The position numbers were made by a program, and so were the translations under genes. DNA of 64,000 nucleotides from an uncultured Verrucomicrobiota bacterium (GTDB lineage: Bacteria > Verrucomicrobiota > Kiritimatiellia > CAIVKH01), in NCBI GenBank assembly GCA_964503335.1, contig CAZCZZ010000002.1, positions 50,164-114,163 on the forward strand, read 5' to 3'. Below, piece by piece: positions 14,128-60,206 of the stretch; position 1 is the stretch's first letter; the number at the start of each line of letters is the position of its first letter. The notes under the pieces were generated by a model that worked only from the letters and a program-made list of their open reading frames with translations, made no database searches and was not told the DNA's origin.

Positions 14128-14271
14128 GCTCTTTTTTACCTTCCGTTGCCGGAGGACGATGCTGGGAAGGCTGCTGTGAGCGAAACCACCGGGGCTGCGC
14201 ACCTACATGCCAAACAGGAGTCCTCAAGCCTTGCTTGAAGAAAGACAACCGCTCTTACAGGGAGAGGGTGT

Positions 14272-44100: not shown

Positions 44101-47100
44101 TATTGTGCTGTCGCAACCATCTACACCGGTCGCCGCGGGCGGAACCACGACGTTCCAACTTCGATTTGATCCGTCAGCGACGGGATTGCGCACGGCGACC
44201 GTCCAGTTTGCGAACAACGTAACCGGGAAGAATCCCTACGACTTCGTGGTGCAGGGCACGGGCGTTGCGGCGGGCATCCTGCGCAGCCCGACCAGCATCA
44301 GCGTGACGTCGATGGTGGGCAGCGCCCCGGCGGCGGCAGGGTTCGGCGTGACGAATGTCGGCCTGGGCCAGCTCATCTACACGATCAGCACCAACGCCCC
44401 GTGGCTCTCGGTGAGCCCGACCGGCGACACGCTCTGGGAGACGGAGGGCCAGCAGCACACGGTGAGCTTCAGCGTGACCGGATATGGCGCGGGGACTTCG
44501 AATGCCACGGTCACGATCACGGACAGCAACGCGTCGAACAGTCCTCAAACGATCGCGGTGTCGATGGTTCTGACCAATATCCCGGATGCCACCTCGAACG
44601 TGGCCACGAACGACGGAAGTGAACTGATCCGTATTGCGTGGACAAAGCCCGGGAGTCTCGATGTCATGATCGTGCACCGCGGTACCAATGCGCCCGTCGC
44701 GCCGACGCAGGGCACTGCGTACAACGTGGGCGACGCCGTCGGATCCGGTGGCGGTCGCGTCGTGTATAAGGGTGGCGGCGCGTACCTTGATCACGTTGTC
44801 AACCCGGGTAGCGACAATTACTACGTCTTCTACGCCGTGAACAACAACCACTACTCGCCCGGAGTCACGAACGTGGCGACGACACCGGCCTACGGCGCGA
44901 GCGAGCGCGTGGAGCAGTTCGGCTATACCAACGGCGTGTCGTTGAGCGGGCTTGGCGGGGGCAATCTCTTCACGAGCACCTGGTCGGTGGGGGCGGGCAA
45001 CTTCACGGTCCTGAGCAATGGCCCGACGCCGAACCTTTACGCCAACACCAATTATTCGGCCGAGGCGGCGCAGCGCGTGGTGAGCAGCAACTACGTCAAC
45101 GACACCGAAATGCGCGCGAGCCGGCGCTTTGCGGCGATCACCAATGGCTCAATCTACATCTCGTACCTCGTCGCCGTGGAATACGGTGGCGCGGGCAAGT
45201 ACACGGGCGTCCGCGCGTTGTCGAACACCACGGAACGATTCTTCGTCGGCGAAGGCGGAGGCAATGACCTGCTCGCCATCGATGGCTACGGAGGTGGCAT
45301 CCAGAACACGGCCTTCAACATCAACTCCTTCCAGTCGAATACCGGAAACGTCTACCTCGTCGTCGCACGCTATATTTTCAGCAGCAACCATGTCTCTGTG
45401 AAGGGCTACTACCGGACCGATACCGTGCCCGAGGCGGAGCCGGCGAGTTGGGATACATCCGTAACGGCCAGCAGCGACCGGTCGTACATCGACGGCATTG
45501 AAATCGTCAGCGGCGGCTTCTCCGGCAACCAACCAGGCCTTGTGGCCTTTGATGAAATCCGCGTCTCGACCAACTGGGCGGGCATCGTTCCTCCGTCGGG
45601 TGTCCCCGGAATCGGTGTCAATCCCTCCAGCGTGACGGTGTCGGTCATGCGCGGCTCAAGTCCTGCCGCCCAGACGTTCACCGTGACGAATGTCGGCCAG
45701 GGCGCCCTCAATTACAGCATCTCAACGAGCGTGAGCTGGATAGCCGTCGCACCGGTTGCCGGGTCGTTATCGGCCTTCCTGGGGCAGATCCACACCTCGT
45801 CGTTCAACACCGTTTCTCTCCCCGTCGGCACGAATATCGCCACGGTGACCGTCACGGCACCGCTTGCGTCCAACTCGCCGGTCACGGTCACCTACAACGT
45901 CATTGTGACGAACATTCCGCCGCCCACGAACGTGATCGCCAGCGCCGATGGCTACGAGATGGTCCGCCTCGGGTGGTCCCCGCCGCCCGGCCTGCCGACC
46001 GTGATGATCCTGCACGACGATGTGCCGATTGCCACGGATCCCTCGCAGGGAACGCTATACAATGTGGACAGCGCGGTGGGGCTCGCGCGCGTCATCTACA
46101 AGGGAACGAACACGTCGCTGGAGCACATCGTGGCGCCGGGATCCACGAACCACTACGCATTCTACGCGGTGAACGGGAACTACTATTCCACGGATGGTTC
46201 GTACACCGTCATCGAGTGTCCGGACACGACCGCGACCAACCTTGTAGCCGGTGACATTGCCATCTTCGGCTTGAACACGCTGACATCCGGCAGCACCAAC
46301 TACGACAGCTTCGGGTTCATCACGCTCACGGACCTGCCGACGGGGACGGCGATCAACTTCACCGACAATGGCTGGCGGAGCAACGACACCTTCAGGACCG
46401 GTGAGGGAACGATCACATGGTCGGCCACGAGTTGCGTGCCTGCGGGAACGGTGATCCGCTGGATCTCGACGAACACCCCGCAGGTCACGGTCGGAAGCAT
46501 CACGACCAATTCCTCATTCGCCCCGAATATCGACGGCGAGCAGGTGCTGGCCTACCAGGGCCCGGCAACCAACCCCACGTTCATCTATGCCCTCGGATCG
46601 CACACCGATGGCGTCTGGCACGTTGACGCGACGGATACGCATGAGTCCGCCTTGCCGCGTGGATTGACGAACGGCCTGACGGCCGTCGTCATCGCCGAGC
46701 TCAACAATGTTGTCATCAGCACAAACACGCTGGCGATTTCGGGCGATCGCGCCGCCATCCTCTCCTACTTTGGCAACACGAACAACTGGGTGGGCGATGA
46801 CAGCATCATCTTCGACCTCCTTGCGTACAACTTCTCGTTCCCCGACCTGAACACCAGCGGCGGCGGCGTGATGACCAATGTCACGATGGGCTTGTACCGT
46901 ACGAACGAAATCGTCGATGTGTTCGCGTACACGAATGGAAACTCGATCTCCTCGCCGGCGCGAAACGGTGGTTGGGGCTGGACCTCGACCTGGACCGGAG
47001 CGGCGGGAACGTGGACAGCCCTCACGAACAACACCGCCGAGATCTCCTTCCCCTCACAGCCCCTGTATCCGACGAATGCTGCAAATATCCTCAAGCTCAC

Positions 47101-50100
47101 GGATCCCGGCGTCAGCACGACCGGCCGCATGCATCGCTATTTCCAGGCTGTCACGAACGGTAGCCTCTATTTCTCAGGCTTCCTGTCCTACCAGTATGAA
47201 GGCTTTAACAAGTTTGCAGGCTTCAGCTTCATGAGCGGCGGGGCCGAGACCGGTTTCATGGGCAAGATCTCTTCGCCGAGCCATAGCTTCACGCTCGGTA
47301 TAGACACGTATGGAGGCTCCCGCGTGTTCGCCGCCTACGACCTGCGCGGCCAGGAGAACAGCACCAACAACACCTACCTGATCGTCGGCAAATACGACTT
47401 CGATACGGACCTGATCACGGTGCAGTCGTACTACCGCGGCGTTGCGGTGCCTGACACGGAGCCCGCGGATTGGGCCGCCACCGCGACCGTGTCCGGCGCG
47501 GGCATCTCCCTCATCGATGGCATCCGCGTCCACGGCGGCGCCGATGTGGGCACGATCGGCAATTGCTACTTTGACGAAATCCGCGTCGCGTCATCATGGG
47601 GCGCCCTGATCAACAGGAATCCCCCGACGGTCCTCACGCGACCCGTCTCCAACATCCTGATCTCCGCCGCAACCGGCGGCGGCGAGGTCACCTCGGATGG
47701 TGGCGCGACCGTCACGAATCGCGGCGTGGTGTACAGCACGAATGCGCTGCCGGTCTTGACCGACAGCCGGACATCCGATGGCACGGGCACCGGGATCTAC
47801 GCCAGCGTCATGACCAACCTGATCGCGGGCGAGACCTACTATGTGCGGGCCTATGCCCAGAACGCTGCGGGCACGTCGTTTGGCGCCGTCTCCAACTTCA
47901 CGACGCTGTGCTTCACCTCTGTCGTGACGGGCCTCTACGCGAACCCGACAAACAGCACAGACTTTACTGCAAACTGGTCGGCCCTTACCGGAGCGGCCCG
48001 CTACCAGCTCGATGTCTCCTCCGTATCCAACTTCACGGGCAATGCCCCGAACTACGGCGTGGAGGTGTTCACCAACATCGGCGGCGGCACATCGAGCAGC
48101 TACCTGCAGCGCAACTGGACGAATAACAATATCGCCTGGAGCGCCTTTGGCGCGCGCACGGACCAGACCATCGATGGCGCGGCGATTGCGCTGGAAGACG
48201 CGAGCGGTGCCTACATTGTCAGCGGCAGCATCACAGGCGGCATCAGTGAGCTGTCCGTGGTCCACCAGATGAAATTCTCGGGCGTGGGCAGCACGTTCGA
48301 CATCTTCGTCAACTCGACCAAGGTGGCGACCAACGTCGCCTTTGATGCCAACATCCAGACGGCGCGCGTGACAGGAATCAATGTCAGCGGCAGCTTCACG
48401 ATCTCGATTTCCAACCGGGCCACATCTGCGGAGCAGTTGGCCCTGGATACGCTGACGTGGACGAATGACAGCTCCGCCGGCTCGTTCATTGCCGGGTATG
48501 ACTCGCGCTCTGTGACGGGAACGAGCCAGAGCGTCACCGGACTCCTTGAAGGCGCCACGTACTACTTCCGCGTGCGCGCCGTTGGCGGCGGCTCGTGCGT
48601 CAGCGGCAACTCATCCACGGTCACCGTGGTCACCGTGGACAACCGGGGACCAAGCCTCTTTGCCTTCAATGTGGACAACAGGACCAATACCGACGCGATG
48701 ATCCGGAACGGGTTCGCAGTCACAGGCCTGGTGTACGATGCAGGGTATGGTGTCTCCAATGGCGTGAGCACACCGTACTACCTGATCCGGAACAATGCGG
48801 GCACTACGGTTGCAGCATCAAACAAGTTCACAACGGCGCCCGCCAATGGTTCGGTCGTGACCGGGAATCTCGCCGGCACCTTCAGCGCAGTGCCGCAGGC
48901 CGACGTGACGCTGGGCATCTACACCGCCATCGTCGGAGCAGTCGATCTGGTTCCCAATGTAAGCGTTTCGAACTTCTTCTTCACGGTGGTGGACGACGAC
49001 ACGAACATCCCCGAGCAGGTTACCCTGATGTCGACCAATACCGGCGGCGGCAACCTGCGCTTCATGCAGATTTCAATCGGCGCCGCCAATATCACGTTGG
49101 GTGGGGGCGCCACCTCCAACCTGTTCTATCCGACGACGGACGGCGCCCTCGCCGCTGTGGCCGCGGCAAATCCGCTGCTCTTCTGGATGGGCGCGCGCGA
49201 TGAATCCGGGCTCAATCGCGGTACCAGCACCCCGACGACCAACATGAACTTCACGCTCGATGCGATCGTGATCAGCAACACGGCGAACTTCGACGCGACG
49301 CGCAGCTCCAGCTTCGCGAGCACGACCAATACGCGCGCGACCAATGTCTGGGCCTGGACATCGCCGTTCACAAGCGACGAGCTGACGACCTTGATCACCA
49401 ACACCGTCAACGGCCTCGGCACGAATCGCATCAGCCTCAGCCTCTTTGACGCAGATGACGACCGGATTGGCGATGCGTTGACGCTGATCGACCGCCAGTA
49501 CGGATATCTTGTCGTGACGGACGATGACACGGTTGTTCCGACGGTGGGATCGACCGATATCAACGGCGTCGGCGCCGCCGGCCAGCTGTACACCATCTTC
49601 ACCGAAACCATGGGCACCGCCGGCACCAGCGGGGAGAGCATCGCCACGCACGAGACCAACAACCGCTTCGACAACACGGCCTTTACCATGAGTGGCACAG
49701 GCGACGCCCGCACCACGACGGCATCCACCGGCTACGACGGCGCATCGGGCTCGTTCAATATTCTGCTCAACGCCGTGGGCGAGACTTTCATCATCGCCGA
49801 CATCAATTCGTCGGCATACACGAACATGAGCCTGGTCTTCGGTGTGTACAAGAGTTCCACCTCGGAGAACGGCTCGAGCCTGGTCGTTGAAGTGAGCACG
49901 AATGGAACGACATGGAACACGCTGACCATTCCGGCGCTGCCCACGGGCGCGGGCACCGCCGACTGGTATTCGCGCACCAATTCCGCAGGGACGATACCAT
50001 CAGGCACGAATCTCCAGATCCGGTTCACCGGCAACACCACGTCCGAGCTCCGTCTTGATGACGTGAAGCTCATCAACTTGATCACGGACGTCTCGCTGAC

Positions 50101-53100
50101 CGACGGACAGATCGCGTCCGGCGGCTACGTTGTCACGTCCCGTGTCAGCGACGCCACCAGCGGTATCGCCGTGAGCAATGCGTTCGCCCCCAGTTACCTC
50201 ATCCTCAACCAGCTCGGCAACCTCGTGGTCTCGAACACCTTCACCACGCCCTTCGCAAACGGCGGAGGCCTGACGCTCACATCGGTGTATTCGACCGCCG
50301 CCGCGGCTGTCAGCACCAACGTGGTCACGTTGGGGATCTATACGACAACGGTCTATGTGACGGACGCCGATGCGGACCGGAACGGCGACCGACTTTCCAG
50401 CACCGGCACGCCGTTCAGTTTCACGGTGATCGATGATGACACGAACGCGCCTGTTGTTTCGGCCTTCCAGCTTGCGGGCGGCACAACCAACTTTGACCTG
50501 AGCCTTGGCTCCATCGCCATAACCGGTCTCCTGACCGATGCATCGAGCGTTCAGTACGGCGGCCTCACCCACATCCTGCTCCTCGACAACACCGGAGGCA
50601 TTGCCCAGAGCAACAGACTCTTCGCCGGCACTGGCTCGGCGGCTACCGGCACGCTGTCCGACGCCGGACTGAACTGCGGCAACATCTATACGGTCCGGCT
50701 GTTCGCGGCGGACGCCGACCTTGATCGTCCCGCGGACCAGCTCTTCGTGACGAACATGGCCCTGGTGATCCAGACCACAGGCACGGGCGGTCCCGCAGAC
50801 TATCCGATCGCGAGCAACCTGCTGGTAAGCGGCTCCACGGCGGCGCCGACGACCACGGTATTCGACGCAACCATTCGCACGGGCGGTTGGAGCCTCGCCA
50901 TGAGCCTGTCGCATCCCGTGGGCGTGTTTACCAATGCGACATCGCCGTCGTTCCGTGTGACCAACCTGGTCGCAGAGGTTATTGCGTTGATGCCCTGGAG
51001 CAACGCGGTGCAGTCGGGCAACACCTACTTCTTCACGAACGCGCCGCTGCCCGGCGCGGCCTACGCATCAGTCAACACGGGCATCCATTTCGTGGTGTGG
51101 TCCGCCAGCAACCAGGGCTCGTGCGTGGCCAGCATCATCGACCGTCCCGTCATCACCGGTGGCACGAACGTATTCGCGGTCGTGGATGAAGACGAGGCCG
51201 TGCCGGTCCTGAGCGGCTTCACGCTCCCGGGCGGAGGCAGCACAGTCTCTGTGGCGACTGCGTTCTCCGGATTTGCCATCACGGGCCTGATCCAGGACGC
51301 GGGCAGCGGCGTGGCCTTCACCTCGCAGCCGCCCTATGCCCTGTTCTATGACGTCAGCGGAAGCGTGCTGGCGAGCAACGCGATGCTTGGCGGAACGGAG
51401 GGCAATGGAACGTCGCCCGTCGCGTTCACCAACTGGTTCTCCGGCATCACCCTGAGCTGTGGAAACTTCTACACGGTGCGGGTCTTTGCGGCGGATGCGG
51501 ATAATGACCGCGCCAGCGACCGGACCTCGGTGAGCACCAATGTCATGGTCGTGGCGACGGAAGGATCCGGCGGCGATGCGCCGACAGCGCAGGACCTCCT
51601 CGTCAACAACACGGCCGCATCGTCTGTAACGCTGTACGACGAAACGATCGCTACAGGCGGATGGCAGGTTGCCCTCGTCATGTCGCACTCCTCGGGCAAT
51701 ATCGTCACCAACGGCCCGAATGCCCCTTCGTTCCTCGTCCAGAACCAGACAGGAACGCATGTCTATTCCACCTCTCCGCTGGTCTGGAGCAACATCGTGA
51801 AGTCAGGCGTGACGTACTACGCGACGAACACGCCGATGCCCGCAGCCAACACAAACTGGATTACGACGGGAACGTACAGCTTTGTCTGGTCCGCCCAGAG
51901 CGACGGTCTCTGCTTTGGAGTGACCAACGGAAGCGGCAATATCAACCCCGGGACGAACAAGTTCCTCGTGGTCGACGACGATGTGATTCCGCCGAACATG
52001 TCCGGCATCAGCGTGGCAGGGGGTACAGGCTCGGTGAGCGGTGCCTCGGACTGCGCGGACCCCACGGCGACCAATCTCCTCGCGGGAGACATAGCGATCT
52101 ATGCGATCAATACCAAGACAGGGTCGGGCACAAACAACGACAGCTTCGCCTTTGTGGCCCTCGTCGATATTCCGACCGGAACGCAGATCAAGTTCACCGA
52201 CAACGGATGGAAGAGCAGCACCGCATCGTTCCGCAATAACGAGGGCACGATTACCTGGATGGCGACGGGCTGTGTCCCTGCGGGCACATCCATTCGCTGG
52301 ATCGCCACGAACACGCCGCTGGTGAGCAGCGGGCAGATCATCGCCACCAACGGAACGTTCGCCCCCAACATCCAGGGCGAGCAGATCCTCGCGTATCAGG
52401 GATCTGAAAGCAGCCCGAACTTCCTGTATGCGGTCAACGACCGCCTGAACGGCATCTGGGACGTGGACGCGGTTGACTCCCATTCGTCCGCGATTCCTCC
52501 CGGCCTGATCGATGGCTACACGGCTGTAGCCGTCGGCGAGTTTGATAACATCATCATCAACACGAACAACCTCACGATCACCGGGGATCGAGACCAGATC
52601 CTCTATTACATTGGCGACAAAGACAACTGGATCGGGTCCGACACCAATGTGTTCGATCTTCTCCAGTTCAACTTCACATTCCCCGACGCCAACGCGGGCG
52701 GTGGCGCAGTAACGGACCAGGACATTCTGTTCGGCGGCTGGAGCATCACGGGCCTCGTGCAGGATGTCGGGAGCGGATTGCTCGTCAGCAACGGTCCCGC
52801 GCTTCGCTATGTCGTCCTGAACACGAACTCCGGCGTCGTGGTGTCCAACTACTTCTACACGACCTTCACGAATGGCACGAAGGTCGAGCAGAACCTCTCC
52901 AATGCGGTGAGCGCAGGCAGCTACAGTCTCAACCAGCTCGGCACCTTCACGGCCCAGCTCTACGCGGCGGATGCCGATGTGGACCGGATCGCAGACCACG
53001 CCGAGCGCAATACGAACGTGCCGTTCCAGGTTGTTGATGATGACACGGACTACCCGCAGATCGGCTTCTTCTATATCAACGGCCAGACCACGATCACCAA

Positions 53101-55474
53101 TCCGGCTGAACTGAGCAGCGTTGTCCTTTCCGGTCAGGTGCGCGACGTGACCAGCGGTATCGCTTTTACGTCGGAACCTCCGACCTACGCCATCCTGGAT
53201 TCAACAGGCGGAGTGGCCGCAAGCGGTGGATTCACCTACGGCCCGACCAACGAGGGCGCCGGATTGAATTGGACCAACCTGTGGACGACGAACCTGAACC
53301 TGACCGGGATCGCCGACTGCGGAACGTACACTGTGCGCGTGACGATCGCAGACGCCGACAATGACCGACCAGTGGATCGCCGTGAAACGAATCTCACTTT
53401 CCTTATCAGCGTGGCGAGCGGAAATGGGTCCGCCCCGATCGCGAGCAACCTTCTGGTTAATGCGACGGCGGCAAGCGCCGCCTCGATCAGCGATGCCACG
53501 GTGGCGGCCGGCGGGTGGTCGCTTGCGGTCAGCATGTATCATCCATCCGGTCTCCGGATCGACGCTCCGTACACGCCCACGTTCGTTCTGCGCAATGCGG
53601 CAGTGACGGGCGTGTCGACGCAGGAATGGACGAACATCGTGACGGCGGGCTCGAGCATGTATGCGACGAACAGCAACATGCCGGCCATCGGCTATTCGAG
53701 TATCGATACCGGCTACTACACCGTGGTCTGGTCCGCCCGCAGCCAGGGCTCCTGCTTCGGCGAAACGAATTTCTGCCCGTTCATCAATGGCGATACGAAC
53801 CGATTCCTCGTGTTTGACGACGACGTCACGGCGCCGGCCAATCCTTCCAACGTCGCATCACCCGCGGCCTACTGGACGAACCTGGCGAACGTGCAGGTTT
53901 CATGGCTTACCAACAACATCTCAGACGCTTCCAGCATGAGCTTCTACATCACGACCAACCGCACGGTACCGGTGTCGACGGCGGGCGGCGTGACGCTCGG
54001 CATGACCAATGCCTACATCTTCACCAACGCGGCGGAAGGCGTGTACACGAACTGGGTCTTTGCGGCCGACGCCGACAACGACCGCGTGAGCGACTCGCTC
54101 ATGAGCGCGATCACGAGCTTCGTCATGTACGTGGACCGCACGGCGCCGACGCAGGTTGTGTCCTTTGCCGCAGTTGTCGGCGCCAACGACAATACGTCGG
54201 AAATCGATCTCAACTGGGGCCCGCTGGCCGACGCAGGCAACAGCAACCTTTCGCCGTGGGCCAGCTACATTGTGTATTACACGGACGAGGCGACCGGGCC
54301 GTTTACGACCAGCAGCTATGTCACAGCGATGAACGGTGGACCTGCCGGGTTGGGGACCAACACGACGAGCAGCATCACGCTGCAGAATTTCGAGTTCGAC
54401 ACGACCTATCGCGTGGCGATCGCAGGCATGGATCGAGCCGGCAACATCGGGCCGATGTCCACGACCCAAACCGTTACGCTTGGCGTGTTTGCCCTCACGC
54501 AGGGTCTCGCCGCTGTCACGGAGGACGTGGATCTCTACCACACCGCCGTCACGGGCAAGCAGTACGACCTGATCTATGTGGATGCCGTGACCTTCGCGGA
54601 TTCGCTGACGAGCTACTGGAACCTGGCCCAGAGCGGGCAGGGCACGTATCGCTACGACACGGGCGCTGCATCGCGCGTTCCTCCGATCGATCTCGGGGGC
54701 GCCACGATGCGGTTCTATCGCGCGGCGCAGGAAGGTCGCTGGACCATCACCAACGTCCCGAACCGCGTTGCGAGCGTCGAGGTGTATGCGGCAAAACCCC
54801 TCACGTTGTCGCCGGGGCAGAACTTCGTCTCGCTCTTCGCGATTCCCGACACGAATCGCGTGGACTTCATCCTCGGCACGAACAAGCTTCCCGCCGGCGG
54901 CACGCTTGCCACGAGCACCGTCGTATCCTTCTATGGCGTCTCGACAAACGGTCACCCCGACGCCGTGTCGATCTGGCTCAGCGACGGAGGCTATTGGTTG
55001 TACAGCACGGGCGGCTTGGCGAATCACCAGTCGCTTCCGCTGTACGAAGGATTCAACATAGCGCTGCCGACCAGCGCTTCGACCCAGAAGGTCCTGCTTG
55101 TGGGACGTATTCCGACGAACACCGTCGTGCAGTCGCTTTCGCCCAACGCGTACAATGTCGTGAGCTACACCGTGCCGCGGCGGATGAGGGTATCCGAGCT
55201 GGGGCTGCGTGAGGCAGGACTCACCACGGGAGCGACACCTTCCACGGCCGACGAGATCCGCATCCTGCAACGCGGCCTCGGCTCCCTCACCACGCCGAAG
55301 GTGCGCATCATCCACAACGGCACGAACTTCGTCACATGGCCCGCGAAAACGAGCGCGAATAACTATATGATCGAAGCTGACGACGCCATTATCATCTACC
55401 GCCGTCCCGGCAGCACCATGAGCTGGACCAACAAGCTGTATTACACACCGCCTGTGCGGAACATGAATCCGTAG
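38177..55474 (+). CDS. Giant secreted multidomain surface protein 2 (~5760 aa), a paralogue of giant 1. It has an N-terminal beta-sandwich module, choice-of-anchor-D-like, BACON-like/FN3/LamG-like super-modules, a Calx-beta domain, an EEP (DNase I-like) domain, FN3-like domains, cadherin-like DxDxDR modules and the shared ~330-aa C-terminal tail.
   Basis: Uninterrupted 17.3-kb ORF. The start is uncertain: ATG 38177 (ATGA overlap with the upstream gene) gives a long N-region before the hydrophobic stretch 'ALRVAALATVLTGSVSHA'. The ORF-track start 38000 would overlap the upstream gene by 180 nt and lacks a signal peptide. An internal GTG start (~38250) cannot be excluded. Confidence 0.85.
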   Translation: MISRDSQADETRGLGVEYPIRWSINVAIEPRSDRHARSTCLRQRGWATHSALRVAALATVLTGSVSHAELLLGFDLLGQGGSQVTTTNTVAAANISTAAPNARITRGSGLQSSTASDSMSSSSWTLPGAATVANAITSNDYFTVRVVPEAGYLIDVTNFSWRTTRSGTGPTNYNLRAGNDGFASDIATWLNKGTTSNFVTTVNITGSTGVEFRIYGYSTHNNGGTARIAHGADFGQSGIDLAIFGTVNASGPDVGVLGNNTLVADGDTTPAYADHTDFGNVGLNQSNLVRTFTITNSGTASLGVGNITTSGTHAADFIVIAQPSNALAAGTISTFQVRFDPSATGTRTATIQFTNDAAGKSPYDFVVQGTGVAAGILRSPTSITVTTMVGTALGTSSFGVTNVGLGRLDYTISTNAAWLSVSPTSANLAETGGQQETITYSVTGLSGGTSNATVTITDSNASNSPQTVSVSLVLTNIPDPTAQSATGDGKEMMRLAWTKHSSFNVMIVYQLGSAPASPQQGTAYSVGDSVSGGGTVVYSGTGATLEHVVRTNATHYYAFYSINNNHYSPGVSANAATPAYGDGEIVDAIAYTNGVTINGVNGGNGWTSAWSVGSGTWTAETSSLTVETNYPTEYANRIRVADPGNGGQPYATRKFAAQSSGTLYMAAIVSYQYQGPWKFAGFSFVSNATEKVFIGKIPNSENNRFGLTSTRNATDYKTSGVTLGDFNTSTGNVYLMIGTYDFSTRDFKAKVYLRTTVVPETEPGSWDVATNLPANYANSIDGIRLASGALGAPDGSIGQTLYDEIRVATNWAGLLRIVAEPEIAVLGTNNAVVTSGDASPATADGTDFGNVNFAGSVSFTNVFSITNSGNANLVLTSISTSSAMGASADFTVISWPTTVLAGTRSNLVIAFNPETTGLRTALVSIANNDSDENPYTFVVQGTGTGYFETITFQGFEGSGTDTWNYLFVSNNPGTEIYVDGSTNASGLYAVALRGSASSNADPYVEFDNIDISAYAVVTLQVAFAVAGIDSGDDLELDLSYDGGTTWNGPGSTTLVFGANNTNLGFTGIGSTTVASNPWFVSLPSTSKQVKVRIRLDESSNDNSFDRTFADNIRLTGANAAPRVRFSAATYYTTETNGTVTIPVTISSSADATVRVALAGSALINSTNDYTVNGTNIIFAAGGTTTSNVVLTLVDDTAAEGLEEINLQLVNGQGTVPGDSAVTVVLLQDDDAFSVMSANLTAGTNIVDGTYTYDETAQRIIRRLRPDVLAIQEWKFTNASARAFVDSVLGTNYYYYIEPESDPNPIPNGVISRWPITVSNQWTDTFVGARDHVQVTIDIPGPRDLHVVSTHLKAGTSDAATRLDQVRELTNYIATAAFPTNDYLVVAGDLNLTNRTETTFVVLTQVVTDARQPADTEGNVNSSLGKTSPFDHVLPNNVLNNVHLTNRMAGFAFTNGMIFDTAQFDDHLLPALVEDSYPTNRAHHAVLKLFNLSTAAVPPTVTTTIASATNLTTATSGGNVTSDGGASVTNRGVVWSTSPGPTVPGLQTTNGTGTGSFSSTLTNLTPGGTYYYKAFAQNSVGTGYGAEYSLTTPCFSGIVTGLLVTVTNDIDFTLTWSNVQYATGFQLDVATSATFSTSGTQDDFTDGDFTNNPAWSGDATGYTNLTAGTLPSGVASTDGNYIGNPASTSGNNIMTIASSETSEWRFSLGSTTFSPSSANHFGVILMSDNAVQGDVTTNSFNGYYLRVGVDGATDYLELWRSSGTTKTKIGDYTTPGNFGADGLEDGLDLRITRNGSGVFELFYATGFTYASTPTSNGGTLTNTTHSSSSYFGVYSRFANTGRRVYIDNIQLGSGSSSYVAGYSNRAVGATSATVTGLTSGATYYYRVRATNEYCVSANSVTGTVTTVLLAPDIAVYGNNTLIADGDTTPAYADHTDFGSVGFINSNLVRTFTITNTGTGSLTLANVTTSGTAAADFIVLSQPSTPVAAGGTTTFQLRFDPSATGLRTATVQFANNVTGKNPYDFVVQGTGVAAGILRSPTSISVTSMVGSAPAAAGFGVTNVGLGQLIYTISTNAPWLSVSPTGDTLWETEGQQHTVSFSVTGYGAGTSNATVTITDSNASNSPQTIAVSMVLTNIPDATSNVATNDGSELIRIAWTKPGSLDVMIVHRGTNAPVAPTQGTAYNVGDAVGSGGGRVVYKGGGAYLDHVVNPGSDNYYVFYAVNNNHYSPGVTNVATTPAYGASERVEQFGYTNGVSLSGLGGGNLFTSTWSVGAGNFTVLSNGPTPNLYANTNYSAEAAQRVVSSNYVNDTEMRASRRFAAITNGSIYISYLVAVEYGGAGKYTGVRALSNTTERFFVGEGGGNDLLAIDGYGGGIQNTAFNINSFQSNTGNVYLVVARYIFSSNHVSVKGYYRTDTVPEAEPASWDTSVTASSDRSYIDGIEIVSGGFSGNQPGLVAFDEIRVSTNWAGIVPPSGVPGIGVNPSSVTVSVMRGSSPAAQTFTVTNVGQGALNYSISTSVSWIAVAPVAGSLSAFLGQIHTSSFNTVSLPVGTNIATVTVTAPLASNSPVTVTYNVIVTNIPPPTNVIASADGYEMVRLGWSPPPGLPTVMILHDDVPIATDPSQGTLYNVDSAVGLARVIYKGTNTSLEHIVAPGSTNHYAFYAVNGNYYSTDGSYTVIECPDTTATNLVAGDIAIFGLNTLTSGSTNYDSFGFITLTDLPTGTAINFTDNGWRSNDTFRTGEGTITWSATSCVPAGTVIRWISTNTPQVTVGSITTNSSFAPNIDGEQVLAYQGPATNPTFIYALGSHTDGVWHVDATDTHESALPRGLTNGLTAVVIAELNNVVISTNTLAISGDRAAILSYFGNTNNWVGDDSIIFDLLAYNFSFPDLNTSGGGVMTNVTMGLYRTNEIVDVFAYTNGNSISSPARNGGWGWTSTWTGAAGTWTALTNNTAEISFPSQPLYPTNAANILKLTDPGVSTTGRMHRYFQAVTNGSLYFSGFLSYQYEGFNKFAGFSFMSGGAETGFMGKISSPSHSFTLGIDTYGGSRVFAAYDLRGQENSTNNTYLIVGKYDFDTDLITVQSYYRGVAVPDTEPADWAATATVSGAGISLIDGIRVHGGADVGTIGNCYFDEIRVASSWGALINRNPPTVLTRPVSNILISAATGGGEVTSDGGATVTNRGVVYSTNALPVLTDSRTSDGTGTGIYASVMTNLIAGETYYVRAYAQNAAGTSFGAVSNFTTLCFTSVVTGLYANPTNSTDFTANWSALTGAARYQLDVSSVSNFTGNAPNYGVEVFTNIGGGTSSSYLQRNWTNNNIAWSAFGARTDQTIDGAAIALEDASGAYIVSGSITGGISELSVVHQMKFSGVGSTFDIFVNSTKVATNVAFDANIQTARVTGINVSGSFTISISNRATSAEQLALDTLTWTNDSSAGSFIAGYDSRSVTGTSQSVTGLLEGATYYFRVRAVGGGSCVSGNSSTVTVVTVDNRGPSLFAFNVDNRTNTDAMIRNGFAVTGLVYDAGYGVSNGVSTPYYLIRNNAGTTVAASNKFTTAPANGSVVTGNLAGTFSAVPQADVTLGIYTAIVGAVDLVPNVSVSNFFFTVVDDDTNIPEQVTLMSTNTGGGNLRFMQISIGAANITLGGGATSNLFYPTTDGALAAVAAANPLLFWMGARDESGLNRGTSTPTTNMNFTLDAIVISNTANFDATRSSSFASTTNTRATNVWAWTSPFTSDELTTLITNTVNGLGTNRISLSLFDADDDRIGDALTLIDRQYGYLVVTDDDTVVPTVGSTDINGVGAAGQLYTIFTETMGTAGTSGESIATHETNNRFDNTAFTMSGTGDARTTTASTGYDGASGSFNILLNAVGETFIIADINSSAYTNMSLVFGVYKSSTSENGSSLVVEVSTNGTTWNTLTIPALPTGAGTADWYSRTNSAGTIPSGTNLQIRFTGNTTSELRLDDVKLINLITDVSLTDGQIASGGYVVTSRVSDATSGIAVSNAFAPSYLILNQLGNLVVSNTFTTPFANGGGLTLTSVYSTAAAAVSTNVVTLGIYTTTVYVTDADADRNGDRLSSTGTPFSFTVIDDDTNAPVVSAFQLAGGTTNFDLSLGSIAITGLLTDASSVQYGGLTHILLLDNTGGIAQSNRLFAGTGSAATGTLSDAGLNCGNIYTVRLFAADADLDRPADQLFVTNMALVIQTTGTGGPADYPIASNLLVSGSTAAPTTTVFDATIRTGGWSLAMSLSHPVGVFTNATSPSFRVTNLVAEVIALMPWSNAVQSGNTYFFTNAPLPGAAYASVNTGIHFVVWSASNQGSCVASIIDRPVITGGTNVFAVVDEDEAVPVLSGFTLPGGGSTVSVATAFSGFAITGLIQDAGSGVAFTSQPPYALFYDVSGSVLASNAMLGGTEGNGTSPVAFTNWFSGITLSCGNFYTVRVFAADADNDRASDRTSVSTNVMVVATEGSGGDAPTAQDLLVNNTAASSVTLYDETIATGGWQVALVMSHSSGNIVTNGPNAPSFLVQNQTGTHVYSTSPLVWSNIVKSGVTYYATNTPMPAANTNWITTGTYSFVWSAQSDGLCFGVTNGSGNINPGTNKFLVVDDDVIPPNMSGISVAGGTGSVSGASDCADPTATNLLAGDIAIYAINTKTGSGTNNDSFAFVALVDIPTGTQIKFTDNGWKSSTASFRNNEGTITWMATGCVPAGTSIRWIATNTPLVSSGQIIATNGTFAPNIQGEQILAYQGSESSPNFLYAVNDRLNGIWDVDAVDSHSSAIPPGLIDGYTAVAVGEFDNIIINTNNLTITGDRDQILYYIGDKDNWIGSDTNVFDLLQFNFTFPDANAGGGAVTDQDILFGGWSITGLVQDVGSGLLVSNGPALRYVVLNTNSGVVVSNYFYTTFTNGTKVEQNLSNAVSAGSYSLNQLGTFTAQLYAADADVDRIADHAERNTNVPFQVVDDDTDYPQIGFFYINGQTTITNPAELSSVVLSGQVRDVTSGIAFTSEPPTYAILDSTGGVAASGGFTYGPTNEGAGLNWTNLWTTNLNLTGIADCGTYTVRVTIADADNDRPVDRRETNLTFLISVASGNGSAPIASNLLVNATAASAASISDATVAAGGWSLAVSMYHPSGLRIDAPYTPTFVLRNAAVTGVSTQEWTNIVTAGSSMYATNSNMPAIGYSSIDTGYYTVVWSARSQGSCFGETNFCPFINGDTNRFLVFDDDVTAPANPSNVASPAAYWTNLANVQVSWLTNNISDASSMSFYITTNRTVPVSTAGGVTLGMTNAYIFTNAAEGVYTNWVFAADADNDRVSDSLMSAITSFVMYVDRTAPTQVVSFAAVVGANDNTSEIDLNWGPLADAGNSNLSPWASYIVYYTDEATGPFTTSSYVTAMNGGPAGLGTNTTSSITLQNFEFDTTYRVAIAGMDRAGNIGPMSTTQTVTLGVFALTQGLAAVTEDVDLYHTAVTGKQYDLIYVDAVTFADSLTSYWNLAQSGQGTYRYDTGAASRVPPIDLGGATMRFYRAAQEGRWTITNVPNRVASVEVYAAKPLTLSPGQNFVSLFAIPDTNRVDFILGTNKLPAGGTLATSTVVSFYGVSTNGHPDAVSIWLSDGGYWLYSTGGLANHQSLPLYEGFNIALPTSASTQKVLLVGRIPTNTVVQSLSPNAYNVVSYTVPRRMRVSELGLREAGLTTGATPSTADEIRILQRGLGSLTTPKVRIIHNGTNFVTWPAKTSANNYMIEADDAIIIYRRPGSTMSWTNKLYYTPPVRNMNP
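41525..41865 (+). other. Calx-beta domain in giant protein 2.
   Basis: 'APRVRFSAATYYTTETNGTVTIPVTISSSADATVRVALAGSALINSTNDYTV...NVVLTLVDDTAAEGLEEINLQLVN...VTVVLLQDDD' has the Calx-beta layout, ending in the DDD motif. Confidence 0.7.
41870..42650 (+). other. Endonuclease/exonuclease/phosphatase (EEP, DNase I-like) domain in giant protein 2.
   Basis: Catalytic landmarks in order: 'VMSANL', 'VLAIQEW', 'VVSTHLKAG', 'VVAGDLNL', 'SPFDHVL' (Asn/Glu/His/Asp-Asn/Asp-His). Confidence 0.8.
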
Positions 55475-55503: not shown

Positions 55504-58197
55504 ATGAAAAACATCGCAGTCTGTATTGTCGCCATGCTCCTGGCCCTTCACGACGTTGGAGCTGCCCAGATTGGCATCTACACATTCACCGGTGCCACGG
55601 GCGACGAGGCCACGTTGCCTGTAGACACACAGCCCAGCAACGCCGTCTTCTCGGTCATGAGCCGTGGGTCGGGATTGACCGCCTCAGCCGCGGCGAACAC
55701 GTTCAGCGCATCGGGTTGGACCACGGGCGCGCTGGACACGAATGACTACTACGAATTCTCGATTACGCCTGCCGACGGCGCATCCGCTACGTACACAAAT
55801 CTCAGCTTCACGGAGAGGCGGTCCGGCACGGGAATCGGCTCGTGGTTGCTTGCCAGCAGCCTTGATGGCTACGCGAGTGGCATTACAAACTTCACGGTGC
55901 CGGATAACACATCGGACCGGAATCACTCCATCCTGTTAGGGCCGGCATTTGCCGGTCTGTCATCCATCGTGACCTTCCGCTTGTATGGGTTTACCTCCGA
56001 GGCAGCCGGCGGGACGTGGCGCGTCGATAACGTCGCGTTGTCCGGCGACATCACGGGTGGCGGAGGCGGACCAGCAACCAATGTACAGTTCACAGCCTCG
56101 TCAGCATCCGTGAGCGAAGCGGCGGGTTCGTACACTGTCACGGTGTTCAAGACGACCGCGGACGGCAATGTAAGCGGGGAGGTCGCGATAAGCGGCACAG
56201 CCACCCAGGGAATCAGCGACGACTACACGATCGACACGACGAACTTCACCATGAATGGCGCGACGACATCAGCGACGTTTGTCGTCACACTCAACAACGA
56301 TACGAACACAGAGCCGTCGAAGACTGTGGGCCTGACCCTGGCCAATGTCACCGGCGGTACGATCGTTTCGCCTTCCGTCTTTACGCTGACGATCACGGAT
56401 GATGATGTCCCGCCGGTCCCCGCCGAGGGCATCGCGGCGTTCCGCTTCACCTCCGGTCCGCATCTCGCCGTGACGACGAAAGAGACGAACATCACTGTAA
56501 CGACAGTCGCGTTGTCGAGTGGGACCATTGAAACCAATCAGACGACGGGCACGGTGTTCCCGAATGAGCCGTTCATTCAGGAATCGTCCTGGACAGCGTC
56601 GAGCCAGGCGTCGGCCAAACGGTTCCAATTCACAATCACGCCTGATTCGGGTTACCAGGTGTCGGTCACCGGCATCAGCTTCCGCGCGCTTGCCACGGGT
56701 TCCGGGCCGACTGCGTTTGGCTACGACATCGGAGGGCTCGCCAGTTTTGCAGCGAACTTCACGAACGATGTACTCGTCGTTGTGAGCCAGTCTGTTGCGG
56801 GAGTTGATAACCAGACAGGTCCCGTCCTGATCCAGATTCAGGGCTGGACCAATGGAACGCGTGCTTCCAGCGGCGTGGGCGATTTTCGTCTCGATGATGT
56901 CGTTGTTTTCGGAACCATCGAAACCGCCGCAGTGACGACGAACGTCCGCTTCACGGCGTCATCGGCCACCGTCGGCGAAGCTGCCGGCACGCACAATGTC
57001 ACCGTCTTCAAGAATCTTGCCGACGGGAACGTGTCCGGCGAAATTGGCCTGGGCGGCTCTGCCACGATCGGTGGCGGAAACGACTACACGATCAACACCA
57101 CGAATTTCGCCCTCAACGGCGCCACAACCTCCGCGACCTTCACGATCACCATCAACGACGACGCGGCGGTCGAATCGACGGAAACGGTAGTCCTGACCCT
57201 GGCCAATGTGACCGGTGGCGATGTGGCGTCACCCTCAGTCTATACGCTGAGCATCACGAACAACGATGTGGCCCCCCCACCGTCATTCAACGTGTGGATC
57301 AATGAGCTGCACTACGACAATCAGGGTCCGGATACAGACGATGGGTTCGAAATTGCTGGCGCATCGGGGACAGACCTCTCCAGCTACAACCTGCTCCTCT
57401 ACAATGGCAGCGTACCTGGTACGATTGGCCAAGTGTACAGTAACCGTGTGCTGTCTGGAGTCATACCCAATCAGTCGAATGGCTATGGTGCGGTGTGGTT
57501 CAGCTATGACAATGGTGCCGGAAACGGTACTCAGAACGGTCCGGATGGCGTAGCCCTTGTCGTAAACACCACAACCGTAATTCAATTCCTCAGCTATGAG
57601 GGGACCATTCTCGCCGTCAACGGGGCGGCATCCGGAATGACATCCGAGGATATCGGTGTCGTGGAAGCCGGGACAGGGACCAATTTGACGGTGCTGAACA
57701 ATTCACTCCAGTTGTGTGGTACCGGCACGAATTACGCATCATTCGCATGGGCGACGAATTCGCCCAATACCCGCGGTCTGATCAATGCCTGCCAGTCGAT
57801 TCCCGGCGGCGGTGGTGGCACGGATGACGATGGCGACCTGCTGCCGAATGACTGGGAGACGCAGTATTTCGGCGGCGCGACGAATGCCACGGCGAATGCG
57901 GACAACGACAGTGATACGTACCTGAACATCGAGGAGTTTGTCGCGGGCAGCGTGCCGACGAACGGCTTGTCGTATCCCCGCGTGAGCGTGGTGACCGGGG
58001 TGGCGGCGGGTCAGCAGGTTCAGTTCCCATCCACGACAGGTCGCTTGTATTGGGTCGATTACCGCACGAACCTGCTTGCGGGTGACTGGCAGAATCTGCA
58101 GTCGAACGTGGCCGGATCGGGCGCGACGCTGCTCATCACCGACACGAACGGTGCACCGCAGAACAGCTACCGCTTCGGCGTGAAGATGGCGCCCTGA
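55504..58197 (+). CDS. Secreted 897-aa protein: signal peptide; two copies of an N-terminal beta-sandwich module, each followed by a Calx-beta domain; a lamin-tail domain (LTD); a dockerin-like double Ca2+ loop; and the shared C-terminal beta-domain.
   Basis: AGGAGA RBS 8 nt upstream of ATG 55504. 'MKNIAVCIVAMLLALHDVGAA' is a signal peptide. LTD signature 'VWINELHYDNQGPDTDDGFEIAGASGTDLSSYNLLLYNG'. Calx-beta units end in 'TLTITDDD' and 'TLSITNND'. Confidence 0.85.
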   Translation: MKNIAVCIVAMLLALHDVGAAQIGIYTFTGATGDEATLPVDTQPSNAVFSVMSRGSGLTASAAANTFSASGWTTGALDTNDYYEFSITPADGASATYTNLSFTERRSGTGIGSWLLASSLDGYASGITNFTVPDNTSDRNHSILLGPAFAGLSSIVTFRLYGFTSEAAGGTWRVDNVALSGDITGGGGGPATNVQFTASSASVSEAAGSYTVTVFKTTADGNVSGEVAISGTATQGISDDYTIDTTNFTMNGATTSATFVVTLNNDTNTEPSKTVGLTLANVTGGTIVSPSVFTLTITDDDVPPVPAEGIAAFRFTSGPHLAVTTKETNITVTTVALSSGTIETNQTTGTVFPNEPFIQESSWTASSQASAKRFQFTITPDSGYQVSVTGISFRALATGSGPTAFGYDIGGLASFAANFTNDVLVVVSQSVAGVDNQTGPVLIQIQGWTNGTRASSGVGDFRLDDVVVFGTIETAAVTTNVRFTASSATVGEAAGTHNVTVFKNLADGNVSGEIGLGGSATIGGGNDYTINTTNFALNGATTSATFTITINDDAAVESTETVVLTLANVTGGDVASPSVYTLSITNNDVAPPPSFNVWINELHYDNQGPDTDDGFEIAGASGTDLSSYNLLLYNGSVPGTIGQVYSNRVLSGVIPNQSNGYGAVWFSYDNGAGNGTQNGPDGVALVVNTTTVIQFLSYEGTILAVNGAASGMTSEDIGVVEAGTGTNLTVLNNSLQLCGTGTNYASFAWATNSPNTRGLINACQSIPGGGGGTDDDGDLLPNDWETQYFGGATNATANADNDSDTYLNIEEFVAGSVPTNGLSYPRVSVVTGVAAGQQVQFPSTTGRLYWVDYRTNLLAGDWQNLQSNVAGSGATLLITDTNGAPQNSYRFGVKMAP
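57288..57700 (+). other. Lamin-tail domain (LTD) in the 897-aa protein.
   Basis: 'INELHYDN...D..FEI.G.....LS.Y.L.LYNG' matches the LTD consensus found in ExeM/NucH-type extracellular nucleases. Confidence 0.7.
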
Positions 58198-58217: not shown

Positions 58218-60206
58218 CTACAGGGGAGAGGGTTGCCTCGCCGCCGGCGCATTCGTGGAAAAGAAGGCCTCGGTGAGTTCGCCGTTCAAGGTCGCGGCGC
58301 GCTCGCGGGCCTTCGAGGCTGCCACGTCATTGCCCGCGAGCGAATAGGCCTTGCTCAGCCAGAGCCAGGCGAGCGGCGCCTTGGGCATCCTTCTGGCGGC
58401 GATCTCGAGCGGTTCCACGGCCTCAAGGTGGCGTCCGAGTTGGACACGGCAGACGCCAAGTCCCATCCATGCAGTCGCCATCGTCGGGCTGCCGTCCACC
58501 AGGATTTCATACAGAGCCTCCGCTTCCCGGAATCTGCCGAGGTCCTGGAAGAAGCTTGCAGCCCCCGCGATGCGCGGCGATGGCGCAGGATAGGCCTTCG
58601 AGCGGACTGCCTTTGCGTAGGCCTTGCGCTCGTCTTCAAGCAGATCGAGGCCCCCCTGCTGAAGTTCCTTGTTGGCGAGGAGCACCGTCCATGGGGAGGG
58701 ATTCGCGACAAAGAGAGCGGACAGGCCGTCGAAGTAGGCGAGGATCCACTTTCGTGAAGCAAGCAGGTGCCGCACGATCATGGTCGAGCCCGGTGATGCA
58801 CAGTTCAGTAGAACGGCCTCCGGTGCACCGCCTGCCTCCAGGATCTTCGTGCTGTCCACATCGCCCATCAAAGCCTTGGCAACAATGGAGTACGCGTTTG
58901 CGCCAAGCAGGGCCGCGCGCTGGTCCAGCATCACCTTCCTGCCCGGCGTGGACCAGAGCAGGAAGCCTCCGTCATGCATCAGGTTGATCGTCCTGGCCGT
59001 AAAGGACGGCTGTCCGACGAGCTTGTCCACGACAGCGGACGGGAAGAGCGATTGCGAAAGGCCAATGCCGAATGAAGACGTGCTTCCGGACCTGTTCAGG
59101 TAGCGGTTGCTCATATGGGTCGCCGCCCCCGTGAGCAGAAGTGCAAGCAGGGCGATTCTGGAATACGTGCCTGCCTTCTCCCTCAACGCCGTTTGTGGCA
59201 GGGATGCGGCCAGGATGTCCCCCAGCGAAGCCAGGCTCAGGCACAGGAAAGGAAACACAAGGACTGCGGCCGCATCGGCAAAGTTCGGCGACCGAAACGC
59301 GAGAAATGCGCCGCACGCGCCCAGCGCGGTGTAGGCGAGCGGGAGGCGATGGCGGCACGTGACAAACGCCGAGGCAACGAGGGCGACGACGGCGTAGCGT
59401 GACCACGTCCCGGTCGATGTGCCGAAGTAGGGATACAGCATCGATATCCAGTCGTTGGCGATCGTTGCGACAGGCGATGTCAGCCCGCTGAACGCCGCGG
59501 GAAGGAGACGAGCCGCATACGGATTGATCAGGGCAACCACGAGGCACGCTGCTGCGATGGACGCGCGCTTCATCATGGCGGACGGCGAACGGCTCTCCCC
59601 GTCAAAGTATCTCGCCGCGGCGAACACGATGCAGAGCAAGGGTCCCAGGAGAAAAGAAGGATGCAGGTTTGCCCAGAGCAGTTGGACGGCCAGAATGGCC
59701 GCCAATCTGCGCTTCGAGATGACATCGCAGTCCAGAAGGAGAATAAAGAGAGCCAGTATCGGAAGTGTGAAGAGGAATGGGCCGACCCCGAGAAGTGGAG
59801 CGATAAGCCAGCCACTGATCCAGAGAGCCCAGGGAATTGCTGCCGACCACGCTTTACGGCTTCCCGCTATGCGCGCGAGAAGGTAGAAGGCAACACCGAC
59901 CGCCAGCGCGTGGGTGAGTACTATGCCGCCGGGTCCCGTCGTACTGAAGAGTGTGTAGAGGATGCGGTCGTAGAGCCAGGACGTGTTGATCCACGGCGTC
60001 CCTTCGGGCACGGACAGCGAAAAGGGGTCCGTAGCGGGAACGCCGTGTTCCGCAATATAGCGGCCCGACGCGAGATGAAGCCAGAAGCTGGGTGTGCCGA
60101 CGGTGCGGAGACCGGCCAGGACAATCACGAGAAGGCCAAGCACAACCAGGGTGCGATCAAGAATCCGGCAACGCTCCGATGAATCCGCAGCAGCTTCCAT
60201 GGGCAC
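58218..60206 (-). CDS. Polytopic membrane protein with C-terminal TPR repeats (GT-C / DUF2723-like putative glycosyltransferase).
   Basis: About 12 predicted TM helices in the N-terminal 450 aa, rich in W/L/A/F. The C-terminal ~150 aa form TPR-like helical pairs ('EAEALYEILVDGSPTMATAWMGLGVCRVQLGRHLEAVEPLEIAARRMPKAPLAWLWLSKAYSLAG'). Confidence 0.6.
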   Translation of the reverse strand: MPMEAAADSSERCRILDRTLVVLGLLVIVLAGLRTVGTPSFWLHLASGRYIAEHGVPATDPFSLSVPEGTPWINTSWLYDRILYTLFSTTGPGGIVLTHALAVGVAFYLLARIAGSRKAWSAAIPWALWISGWLIAPLLGVGPFLFTLPILALFILLLDCDVISKRRLAAILAVQLLWANLHPSFLLGPLLCIVFAAARYFDGESRSPSAMMKRASIAAACLVVALINPYAARLLPAAFSGLTSPVATIANDWISMLYPYFGTSTGTWSRYAVVALVASAFVTCRHRLPLAYTALGACGAFLAFRSPNFADAAAVLVFPFLCLSLASLGDILAASLPQTALREKAGTYSRIALLALLLTGAATHMSNRYLNRSGSTSSFGIGLSQSLFPSAVVDKLVGQPSFTARTINLMHDGGFLLWSTPGRKVMLDQRAALLGANAYSIVAKALMGDVDSTKILEAGGAPEAVLLNCASPGSTMIVRHLLASRKWILAYFDGLSALFVANPSPWTVLLANKELQQGGLDLLEDERKAYAKAVRSKAYPAPSPRIAGAASFFQDLGRFREAEALYEILVDGSPTMATAWMGLGVCRVQLGRHLEAVEPLEIAARRMPKAPLAWLWLSKAYSLAGNDVAASKARERAATLNGELTEAFFSTNAPAARQPSPL

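Follow-up and report, generated by a model that had tools for sequence, protein, structure and literature searches.

Three exported proteins encoded in a 64,000-nucleotide stretch of DNA from an uncultured Verrucomicrobiota bacterium of the Kiritimatiellia (contig CAZCZZ010000002.1, positions 50,164 to 114,163 of the forward strand; the whole stretch is called the window below) end, as judged from sequence comparison, in copies of one homologous C-terminal module of ~125 amino acids (aa). An original prediction made on the same DNA had described these tails as a recurrent dockerin-like module shared by an amylase giant, a 290-aa protein and an 897-aa protein, and had proposed that they act as a common sorting or anchoring signal. 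The shared layout is borne out by shuffling statistics and by an independent profile, whereas assignment to the dockerin family is not. It is proposed here, tentatively, that the module is a lineage-specific anchoring or docking domain. The three proteins, named A, B and C, and their tails are located as follows.

Gene A, 2663-11122, + strand: 2819-aa exported protein with GH13 and GH57 domains (Pfam Alpha-amylase and Glyco_hydro_57), internal TSP3-like repeats and the C-terminal module
Tail A, 10709-11119, + strand: 137 aa, complete module, ending ..RFYRIDVRLPQ-stop; loops 10712-10747 and 10793-10828, beta part 10844-11119
Gene B, 37308-38180, + strand: 290-aa protein consisting of a signal peptide, a ~140-aa beta-rich N-domain and the module
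Tail B, 37803-38177, + strand: 125 aa, complete and more divergent module, ending ..HFRVRLME-stop; loops 37809-37844 and 37875-37910, beta part 37926-38177
Gene C, 55504-58197, + strand: 897-aa exported protein with a signal peptide, two Calx-beta domains (Pfam E 8e-14) and the C-terminal module
Tail C, 57817-58194, + strand: 126 aa, complete module, stop codon at 58195-58197
Ca2+ loop 1 of tail C, 57823-57858, + strand: DDDGDLLPNDWE, of TSP3/EF-hand type
Ca2+ loop 2 of tail C, 57901-57936, + strand: DNDSDTYLNIEE
Beta-sandwich of tail C, 57952-58194, + strand: ending ..SYRFGVKMAP-stop

Homology of the three tails

Each tail reaches the last codon of its open reading frame (ORF), and all three lie on the + strand. 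Pairwise Smith-Waterman comparison of the whole tails gave z-scores of 11-16 against 500 shuffles. When the Ca2+ loops were left out, the beta parts still gave z = 4.7-8.1, with not one of the 500 shuffles matching the observed score for any pair. A hidden Markov model (HMM) was made for the beta part from 113 metagenomic relatives, with the window sequences left out. Run on the six-frame translation of the window, it returned exactly three matches, namely tails C (E 1.7e-18), A (E 1.4e-12) and B (E 3.6e-8). An HMM built from the three tails themselves found no fourth complete copy in the six-frame window, just partial TSP3-like matches within A.

Similarity by chance or low complexity, arising from the Asp/Gly-rich loops, therefore has a practically negligible probability. 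It is true that DxDxDG loops by themselves are present in many phyla, archaea among them, and swamp profile searches. Nevertheless, this explanation is refuted because the beta part is significant without the loops, both against shuffles and in the independent HMM (in round figures, E 4e-8 to 2e-18). The tails are also retained in orthologues, as seen in the protein B family and in a Kiritimatiellia amylase (locus L082). With orthologues keeping the tail and profile comparisons significant, the relationship originally claimed stands; the peptides quoted for it were correct, and its tail coordinates were off by a few bases.

Anatomy and predicted fold

The alignment of the module (A2) holds 117 sequences, the three tails and 114 relatives. 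Its consensus starts with DSDGDGxPDxWE, followed after 10-15 residues by DxDGDGMxNxxEYxAGTDPTNxxSxL and then by the beta region, which reads RxYxV ... W..L ... (GTG) ... D ... RFYRxxVxP. Both loops have the 12-residue ligand spacing of EF-hands (D1, D3, D5, N/D9, E12). D1, D3, D5 and E12 are found in all six window loops, each of which fits the pattern D1-D3-D5-(N/D/A)9-E12, in agreement with the double EF-hand-type loops described earlier. In loop 1, D3, D5, D7, N11 and E14 are invariant in the three-tail alignment, and in loop 2, D29, D31, D33 and E40 are invariant across the 117 sequences.

In the AlphaFold2 model of tail C, computed with the 117-sequence alignment (predicted local distance difference test, pLDDT, 94.8; predicted TM-score, pTM, 0.83), the tail is a single compact unit in which each loop is followed by a short helix (11-18 and 37-43) and six strands lie within 57-124. 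According to this model, the module consists of two TSP3-type loops joined rigidly via "EYxAGTDPxN" to a six-stranded FN3/Ig-like beta-sandwich. The beta-domain, put at ~90 aa by the original prediction, measures 81-92 aa, and the alternating hydrophobic residues noticed at its end correspond to the final beta-strand of the model. The best-conserved positions of the beta part are Y78 (98%), W91, D109 and R-F-Y-R at 116-119. An [F/Y]YR motif lies 4-8 residues from the end, and 61 of the 91 members bearing the motif have proline as their final residue; the window tails end in Q (A), E (B) and P (C).

Several known types of C-terminal signal were considered for these tails and rejected. The beta-signal of the beta-barrel assembly machinery and autotransporter C-termini do not apply, since the final residue is not aromatic and the predicted fold is a soluble sandwich, not a barrel. 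PEP-CTERM and other transmembrane-type (TM-type) sorting signals were set aside because the tails have no hydrophobic helix.

Relation to known domain families

On the evidence of profile and fold searches, the loops are bacterial TSP3 repeats and the sandwich is an uncurated FN3-like family. TSP3_bac (PF18884) matches 106 of the 117 members, with a best E of 3e-25; protein B of the window reaches E 1.4e-4 and 22 bits, the cut-off being 25 bits. The beta-sandwich is not covered by any model in the copies of Pfam-A and NCBIfam searched. In a profile search of the PDB, the loop pair matched Staphylococcus Bap in its dual EF-hand region (7c7r, E 2.6e-5), and the beta part gave weak matches to Fn3-like 3mpc from Clostridium (E 1e-3) and to chitosan-binding modules (E 6e-3). 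Foldseek against the PDB returned generic FN3/Ig matches only for the beta part, the best being Tencon FN3 (E 5e-3, TM 0.45 on target). By fold, then, the beta part comes closest to the FN3/Ig sandwich; however, FN3 has seven strands where the module has six, and the beta part lacks a Pfam fn3 match and carries its own signature, RxYxV ... W..L ... D ... RFYR.

NCBIfam gave weak matches (E 1e-11 to 1e-13, far under the curated cut-offs) to models of surface or adhesion proteins, namely Amuc_1099_fam, MtsD and CglD. Amuc_1099_fam (NF042425) is matched by 107 of the 117 members, only over profile positions 105-153 of 321, where the paired TSP3 unit (~48 residues) aligns. Ten members scanned individually reached at most 45.6 bits, against a cut-off of 50, and tail C scored 20.4 bits. 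Membership in the Amuc_1099 pilus-like family was rejected, since only the TSP3 pair aligns and the scores fall below the cut-off. Thus the loop pair of the module aligns with the TSP3 repeats of MtsD, CglD and the Amuc_1099 family and with the dual EF-hand region of Bap, whereas these proteins do not share the beta-sandwich. TSP3 repeats occur in all phyla and at any position of a protein, whereas the full module is terminal and specific to the Planctomycetota-Verrucomicrobiota-Chlamydiota (PVC) group. As far as sequence comparison goes, the loop repeat family was known already, and what appears new is the beta-sandwich and the fixed terminal architecture of two TSP3 loops plus sandwich; no paper describing this combination was found in the literature.

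The term "dockerin-like" deserves separate treatment. As in the type I dockerins of cellulosomes (PF00404), two tandem 12-residue DxDxDG loops with helices stand at the C-terminus of secreted enzymes, and a docking role is proposed for the module as well. Dockerin is a stand-alone all-alpha Ca2+-binding domain of ~70 aa without a beta-sandwich. The module, in contrast, has shorter helices that are fused to a sandwich, and its homology does not extend beyond the loop. Dockerin_1 gave no match in the A tail, B and C at E<=1, nor in the 117 members at E<=0.01. An hhalign comparison with type I dockerin (the CelS sequence) gave a probability of 0.2% and E 0.33 over 11 loop columns. The name "dockerin-like" is therefore apt only as a description of the generic layout of Ca2+ loop and helix.

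Some likeness to RTX proteins exported by type I secretion systems may also be pointed out. In these very large secreted proteins, Ca2+ repeats lie just upstream of a C-terminal element, and Ca2+-triggered folding outside the cell is a plausible principle common to them and the module. Unlike such substrates, A, B and C bear N-terminal Sec signal peptides, and their C-terminal element is predicted to be a folded beta-sandwich. The RTX repeat is a GGxGxD nonapeptide, and such nonapeptides appear to be missing from the proteins here.

Distribution across lineages

In the sequence searches, the complete module was nearly confined to Verrucomicrobiota and Kiritimatiellota. A word-indexed search returned 216 relatives, mostly C-terminal fragments on short metagenome contigs, the named ones belonging to Limisphaerales, Verrucomicrobiae and Terrimicrobiaceae. 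In a genome scan with a 10-sequence alignment, covering one genome per GTDB species and keeping the best 80 loci, the beta-only HMM was positive in 30 of the 80, comprising 27 Verrucomicrobiota, two Kiritimatiellia and one locus labelled Enterobacteriaceae. The Verrucomicrobiota carriers include Limisphaerales, Pedosphaera, Akkermansiaceae, metagenome-assembled genomes (MAGs) of Luteolibacter type and the cultured Haloferula rosea KCTC 22201 (L027). At the loci from archaea, Bacteroidota, Myxococcota, Proteobacteria, Lentisphaerae and Planctomycetota, the match was confined to the TSP3 pair. The sole beta-positive locus outside Verrucomicrobiota and Kiritimatiellota (L007, contig CAZQUC010000130.1) has a complete module on a protein with metallophosphoesterase and PKD domains, in a MAG labelled "uncultured Enterobacteriaceae", a label that is probably a binning or labelling error. 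When the whole-module profile was run against 1.8 billion representatives, the 125,860 matches were swamped by TSP3 arrays, making this number unusable for family size.

Terminal position, cargo and export

The module has a very strong preference for the end of the protein. In 112 of the 117 members it is followed by just 0-3 residues, and of the 35 beta domains at the genomic loci, 28 come within four residues of the stop codon, as do 15 of 18 in representatives of TSP3-rich giant proteins. Copies in internal position are found in L033, L048, L072, P0127 and P0132, and one gene (L004 1622-4609) ends in two tandem beta domains. Among 150 TSP3-rich giants, 15 end in the beta domain and ~17 in tails resembling TM-type sorting signals. 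These figures suggest that the module occupies an "anchor slot".

The cargo is diverse. In the window alone the module follows GH13 and GH57 domains in A (GH13 at the N-terminus, GH57 near aa 2070-2260, with a TSP3-like internal array at aa ~1440-1645 besides the terminal module), a beta-rich N-domain in B and Calx-beta domains in C. The three N-termini, that of C being MKNIAVCIVAMLLALHDVGAAQ, resemble signal peptides, so that the description of functionally different secreted proteins held good. They have no lipobox cysteine, and lipoprotein anchoring was accordingly rejected from the sequences. Elsewhere the module is carried by Ig, metallophosphoesterase plus PKD, CBM96 plus DUF11, NHL-propeller, amylase plus malectin, Hcp-like, YD-repeat and LamG proteins. 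A crude hydropathy screen detected a signal peptide in 14 of 21 complete homologous ORFs.

The module also tends to occur in clusters, with three copies in the window, three in adjacent genes of L036 and two each in L027 and L043. The three consecutive genes of L036 (394-7296) each end in the module, and the two of them that were scanned with Pfam are both NHL-propeller proteins. As a separate observation, a protein from an uncultured Akkermansia sp. MAG (L016 3278-4363) combines a Sec-type signal peptide, a type VI secretion system Hcp domain (Pfam E 1.6e-25), two TSP3 loops and the C-terminal beta domain; an Hcp-like domain on an exported protein is unusual.

A candidate anchoring role at the cell surface

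We tentatively favour the view, drawn from these sequence patterns and held with somewhat less than even confidence, that the module is a lineage-specific, cargo-independent and Ca2+-stabilised anchoring or docking domain acting at the cell surface or in a shared surface structure. Cargo would be exported by Sec via the N-terminal signal peptide. Outside the cytoplasm, Ca2+ binding by the two loops would fix them to the beta-sandwich. Once folded, the module could serve as a common anchor or dock, holding enzymes, adhesins and accessory proteins on the surface, in a shared matrix or on a fibre. The common sorting or anchoring signal originally suggested fits the terminal position, the promiscuity towards cargo and the multi-copy occurrence; the role itself, including the surface location and the anchoring to a putative partner, is what we infer.

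Several observations speak against such a role. The putative Ca2+ binding by the loops is deduced from motif conservation. The beta part is near neutral, with a mean net charge of +0.3, and provides no clue to a ligand. A few copies are internal, as listed above, and FN3-like domains often serve as passive spacers. A search of the window and of ~90 related loci turned up neither a partner nor a receptor; the only neighbours conserved there are the giants and a membrane protein with TPR repeats.

It is also conceivable, if rather less probable, that the module has no sorting role and is an FN3-like structural or ligand-binding cap (resembling carbohydrate-binding modules, or adhesive) of TSP3 repeats that was spread by domain shuffling. 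The fold matches, limited to FN3/Ig, agree with such a cap, as do the weak profile matches to 3mpc and chitosan-binding modules, the abundance of TSP3 arrays in such proteins, the internal or tandem position of some copies and a divergent internal copy in the giants (see below). Nevertheless, a cap would hardly call for the terminal bias described above, nor for the fixed unit of two TSP3 loops plus beta domain and its terminal motif being kept across very different cargo. Because non-carbohydrate cargo such as Hcp-like, NHL and phosphoesterase proteins bear it too, a substrate-binding module is unlikely to explain the pattern.

Another explanation, which we regard as unlikely, is that the module is an outer-membrane export signal of an undescribed PVC route and is possibly removed after transport, in the manner of the C-terminal domain (CTD) of the type IX secretion system (T9SS). 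PMC4804311 describes that CTD as an export signal with the form of a beta-sandwich at the C-terminus. The module follows the same logic as this signal of Bacteroidota, with an ~80-90-aa beta-sandwich at the extreme C-terminus of unrelated, Sec-exported cargo, many paralogues, a lineage-restricted family and a conserved terminal RFYRxVxP in which proline is mostly last; the resemblance is functional only. To our knowledge, T9SS is confined to the Bacteroidota and the wider Fibrobacterota-Chlorobiota-Bacteroidota (FCB) group. Unlike the T9SS CTD, the module belongs to another phylum, always has two Ca2+ loops ahead of its sandwich, and has six strands and an RFYR...P end. Por_Secre_tail and other T9SS CTD models (TIGR04183, PF18962 and type B, from Pfam and NCBIfam) gave no match in the window proteins or the 117 members, and no T9SS CTD was among the top 50 fold matches. 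No machinery is linked to the module; a secretin near L087 and type II secretion E/F genes near L088 are single cases. Moreover, tandem and internal copies, including that of the giants, would be unexpected if the module were purely an export tag, and they fit a binding or anchoring domain better.

If the anchoring role is correct, the module would be a C-terminal localisation-type domain in phyla without any such characterised signal. Verrucomicrobiota and Kiritimatiellota contribute heavily to polysaccharide degradation in soil, sea and gut, yet little is known about how their enzymes and giant adhesins are placed on the surface. A module recognisable across the lineage would give a sequence handle for predicting the surface and secreted proteome, a starting point toward the receptor or machinery that reads it, and possibly a display tag for use in engineering. 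Should it turn out to be no more than a structural FN3-like cap, it would make a useful domain annotation and nothing further.

The protein B family and the neighbouring giants

Two giant ORFs with many Ig-like domains, G1 and G2, lie beside gene B. Together with A, B and C they make up the five large exported proteins of the window.

Giant G1, ORF 14946-37031, + strand: 7361 aa; PATR repeats, PLD-like domain, fn3
Internal beta-sandwich of G1, 35958-36230, + strand: no TSP3 loops; a ~265-aa terminal domain comes after it
Giant G2, ORF 38000-55474, + strand: ~5760-5824 aa; EEP nuclease domain, Calx-beta and Ig-like domains
Internal beta-sandwich of G2, 54488-54739, + strand: ..ATMRFYRAAQ, followed by a ~245-aa terminal domain

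Both giants, and those of L082, L087 and L089 for which the C-terminus is available, have a common C-terminal region of ~400 aa with 33-45% identity (43% between G1 and G2). It comprises an fn3 domain, a divergent "RFYR" beta-sandwich and a ~250-aa terminal domain that ends in YYTPPxxNxNP and has no Pfam family. The single-HMM signal of these internal copies is weak. In profile-profile comparison by hhalign, however, the segment of the giants (alignment A5) matched the module (A2) with a probability of 89% and E 2.2e-6 over 63 columns. Therefore, all five large exported proteins of the window carry this type of beta-sandwich near the C-terminus, terminal and with TSP3 loops in A, B and C, internal and without loops in G1 and G2. 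A search with the C-terminal 340 aa of the giants returned only four short fragments.

Protein B belongs to a family of its own, with ~40 full-length relatives of 255-322 aa that share 31-47% identity over ~90% of the length; one member is annotated from a Kiritimatiellia MAG. Naming within this family, together with synteny, likewise points to a Kiritimatiellia-like PVC bacterium as the source of the window. An exact look-up of protein B gave no match, probably owing to a different start codon. A beta domain is detectable in 46 of the 57 matches to protein B, a number that includes the full-length relatives. The AlphaFold2 model of protein B (pLDDT 90.9, pTM 0.82) comprises two beta-sandwiches and the loop pair, and a fold search with it gave no informative structural neighbour. 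The Kiritimatiellia amylase of L082, with CBM48, GH13 and TSP3, is encoded next to a B-like gene and ends in ..SFYRVVVNP, and P0001 appears to be a tail fragment of an A orthologue, judged by eye from similar sequence with no identity computed.

A B-like gene stands directly upstream of a giant in six of seven genomic contexts, counting L089, and the seventh has no giant. Such pairs occur in the window, L082, L084, L087 and L088, with giants of 2193 to >6700 aa. In L089, as in the window, the B-like gene follows a giant (7287 aa), and the gene downstream of it breaks off after 105 aa at the contig end. The stop codon of gene B abuts the likely start region of G2. This conserved gene pair suggests that B is an accessory or partner of the giant.

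The pairing bears on a cohesin-dockerin type of assembly, in which the module would plug in a Ca2+-dependent manner into receptor repeats of a scaffold, the neighbouring giants being candidate scaffolds. Such an assembly seems quite improbable. In its favour, the tandem loop-helix Ca2+ motifs resemble the dockerin layout, gene B precedes a giant so regularly, and the giants contain a related beta-sandwich. Besides the missing Dockerin_1 matches, the negligible hhalign probability and the lack of a beta-sandwich in dockerin, however, no large window protein has a Cohesin match at E<=1e-3, in keeping with the earlier remark that no cohesin-like partner is obvious in the window. Most module genes of Verrucomicrobiota do not lie beside such giants, and many encode giants themselves.

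A further possibility, also unlikely in our judgement, is that the TSP3 pair plus "RFYR" sandwich is the cargo tag of an undescribed sorting system of Verrucomicrobiota and Kiritimatiellota, serving outer-membrane export or surface attachment, with the B family and the internal domain of the giants within the same surface assembly.

In three genomes a ~209-aa PEP-CTERM protein (..VIPEPSS, a hydrophobic helix and KK) is encoded directly upstream of the B-like gene, as listed below; no homologue of it was found in the window.

PEP-CTERM protein, L084 9311-9925
PEP-CTERM protein, L086 3185-3814
PEP-CTERM protein, L088 9375-10004, with a 4-nt overlap with the B-like gene

Layout of the window

The window has 60.7% G+C. 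Its genes for very large exported proteins form a run on the + strand, with housekeeping genes on both flanks. An identical copy of gene C is present on one Logan contig. The remaining features are as follows.

Left flank: AraC regulator, upp
Between gene A and giant G1: nth and pnp, the latter at 12019-14202, - strand
Right flank: TPR membrane protein at 58218-60206, - strand, then sucD and pirin

In the window the locus adjoins pnp; in L084, L086 and L088 its neighbour is the nusA-infB-rbfA-truB-ribF operon. The TPR membrane protein of L084 is 37.5% identical to that of the window. These surroundings suggest a conserved chromosomal neighbourhood in Kiritimatiellia-like genomes.

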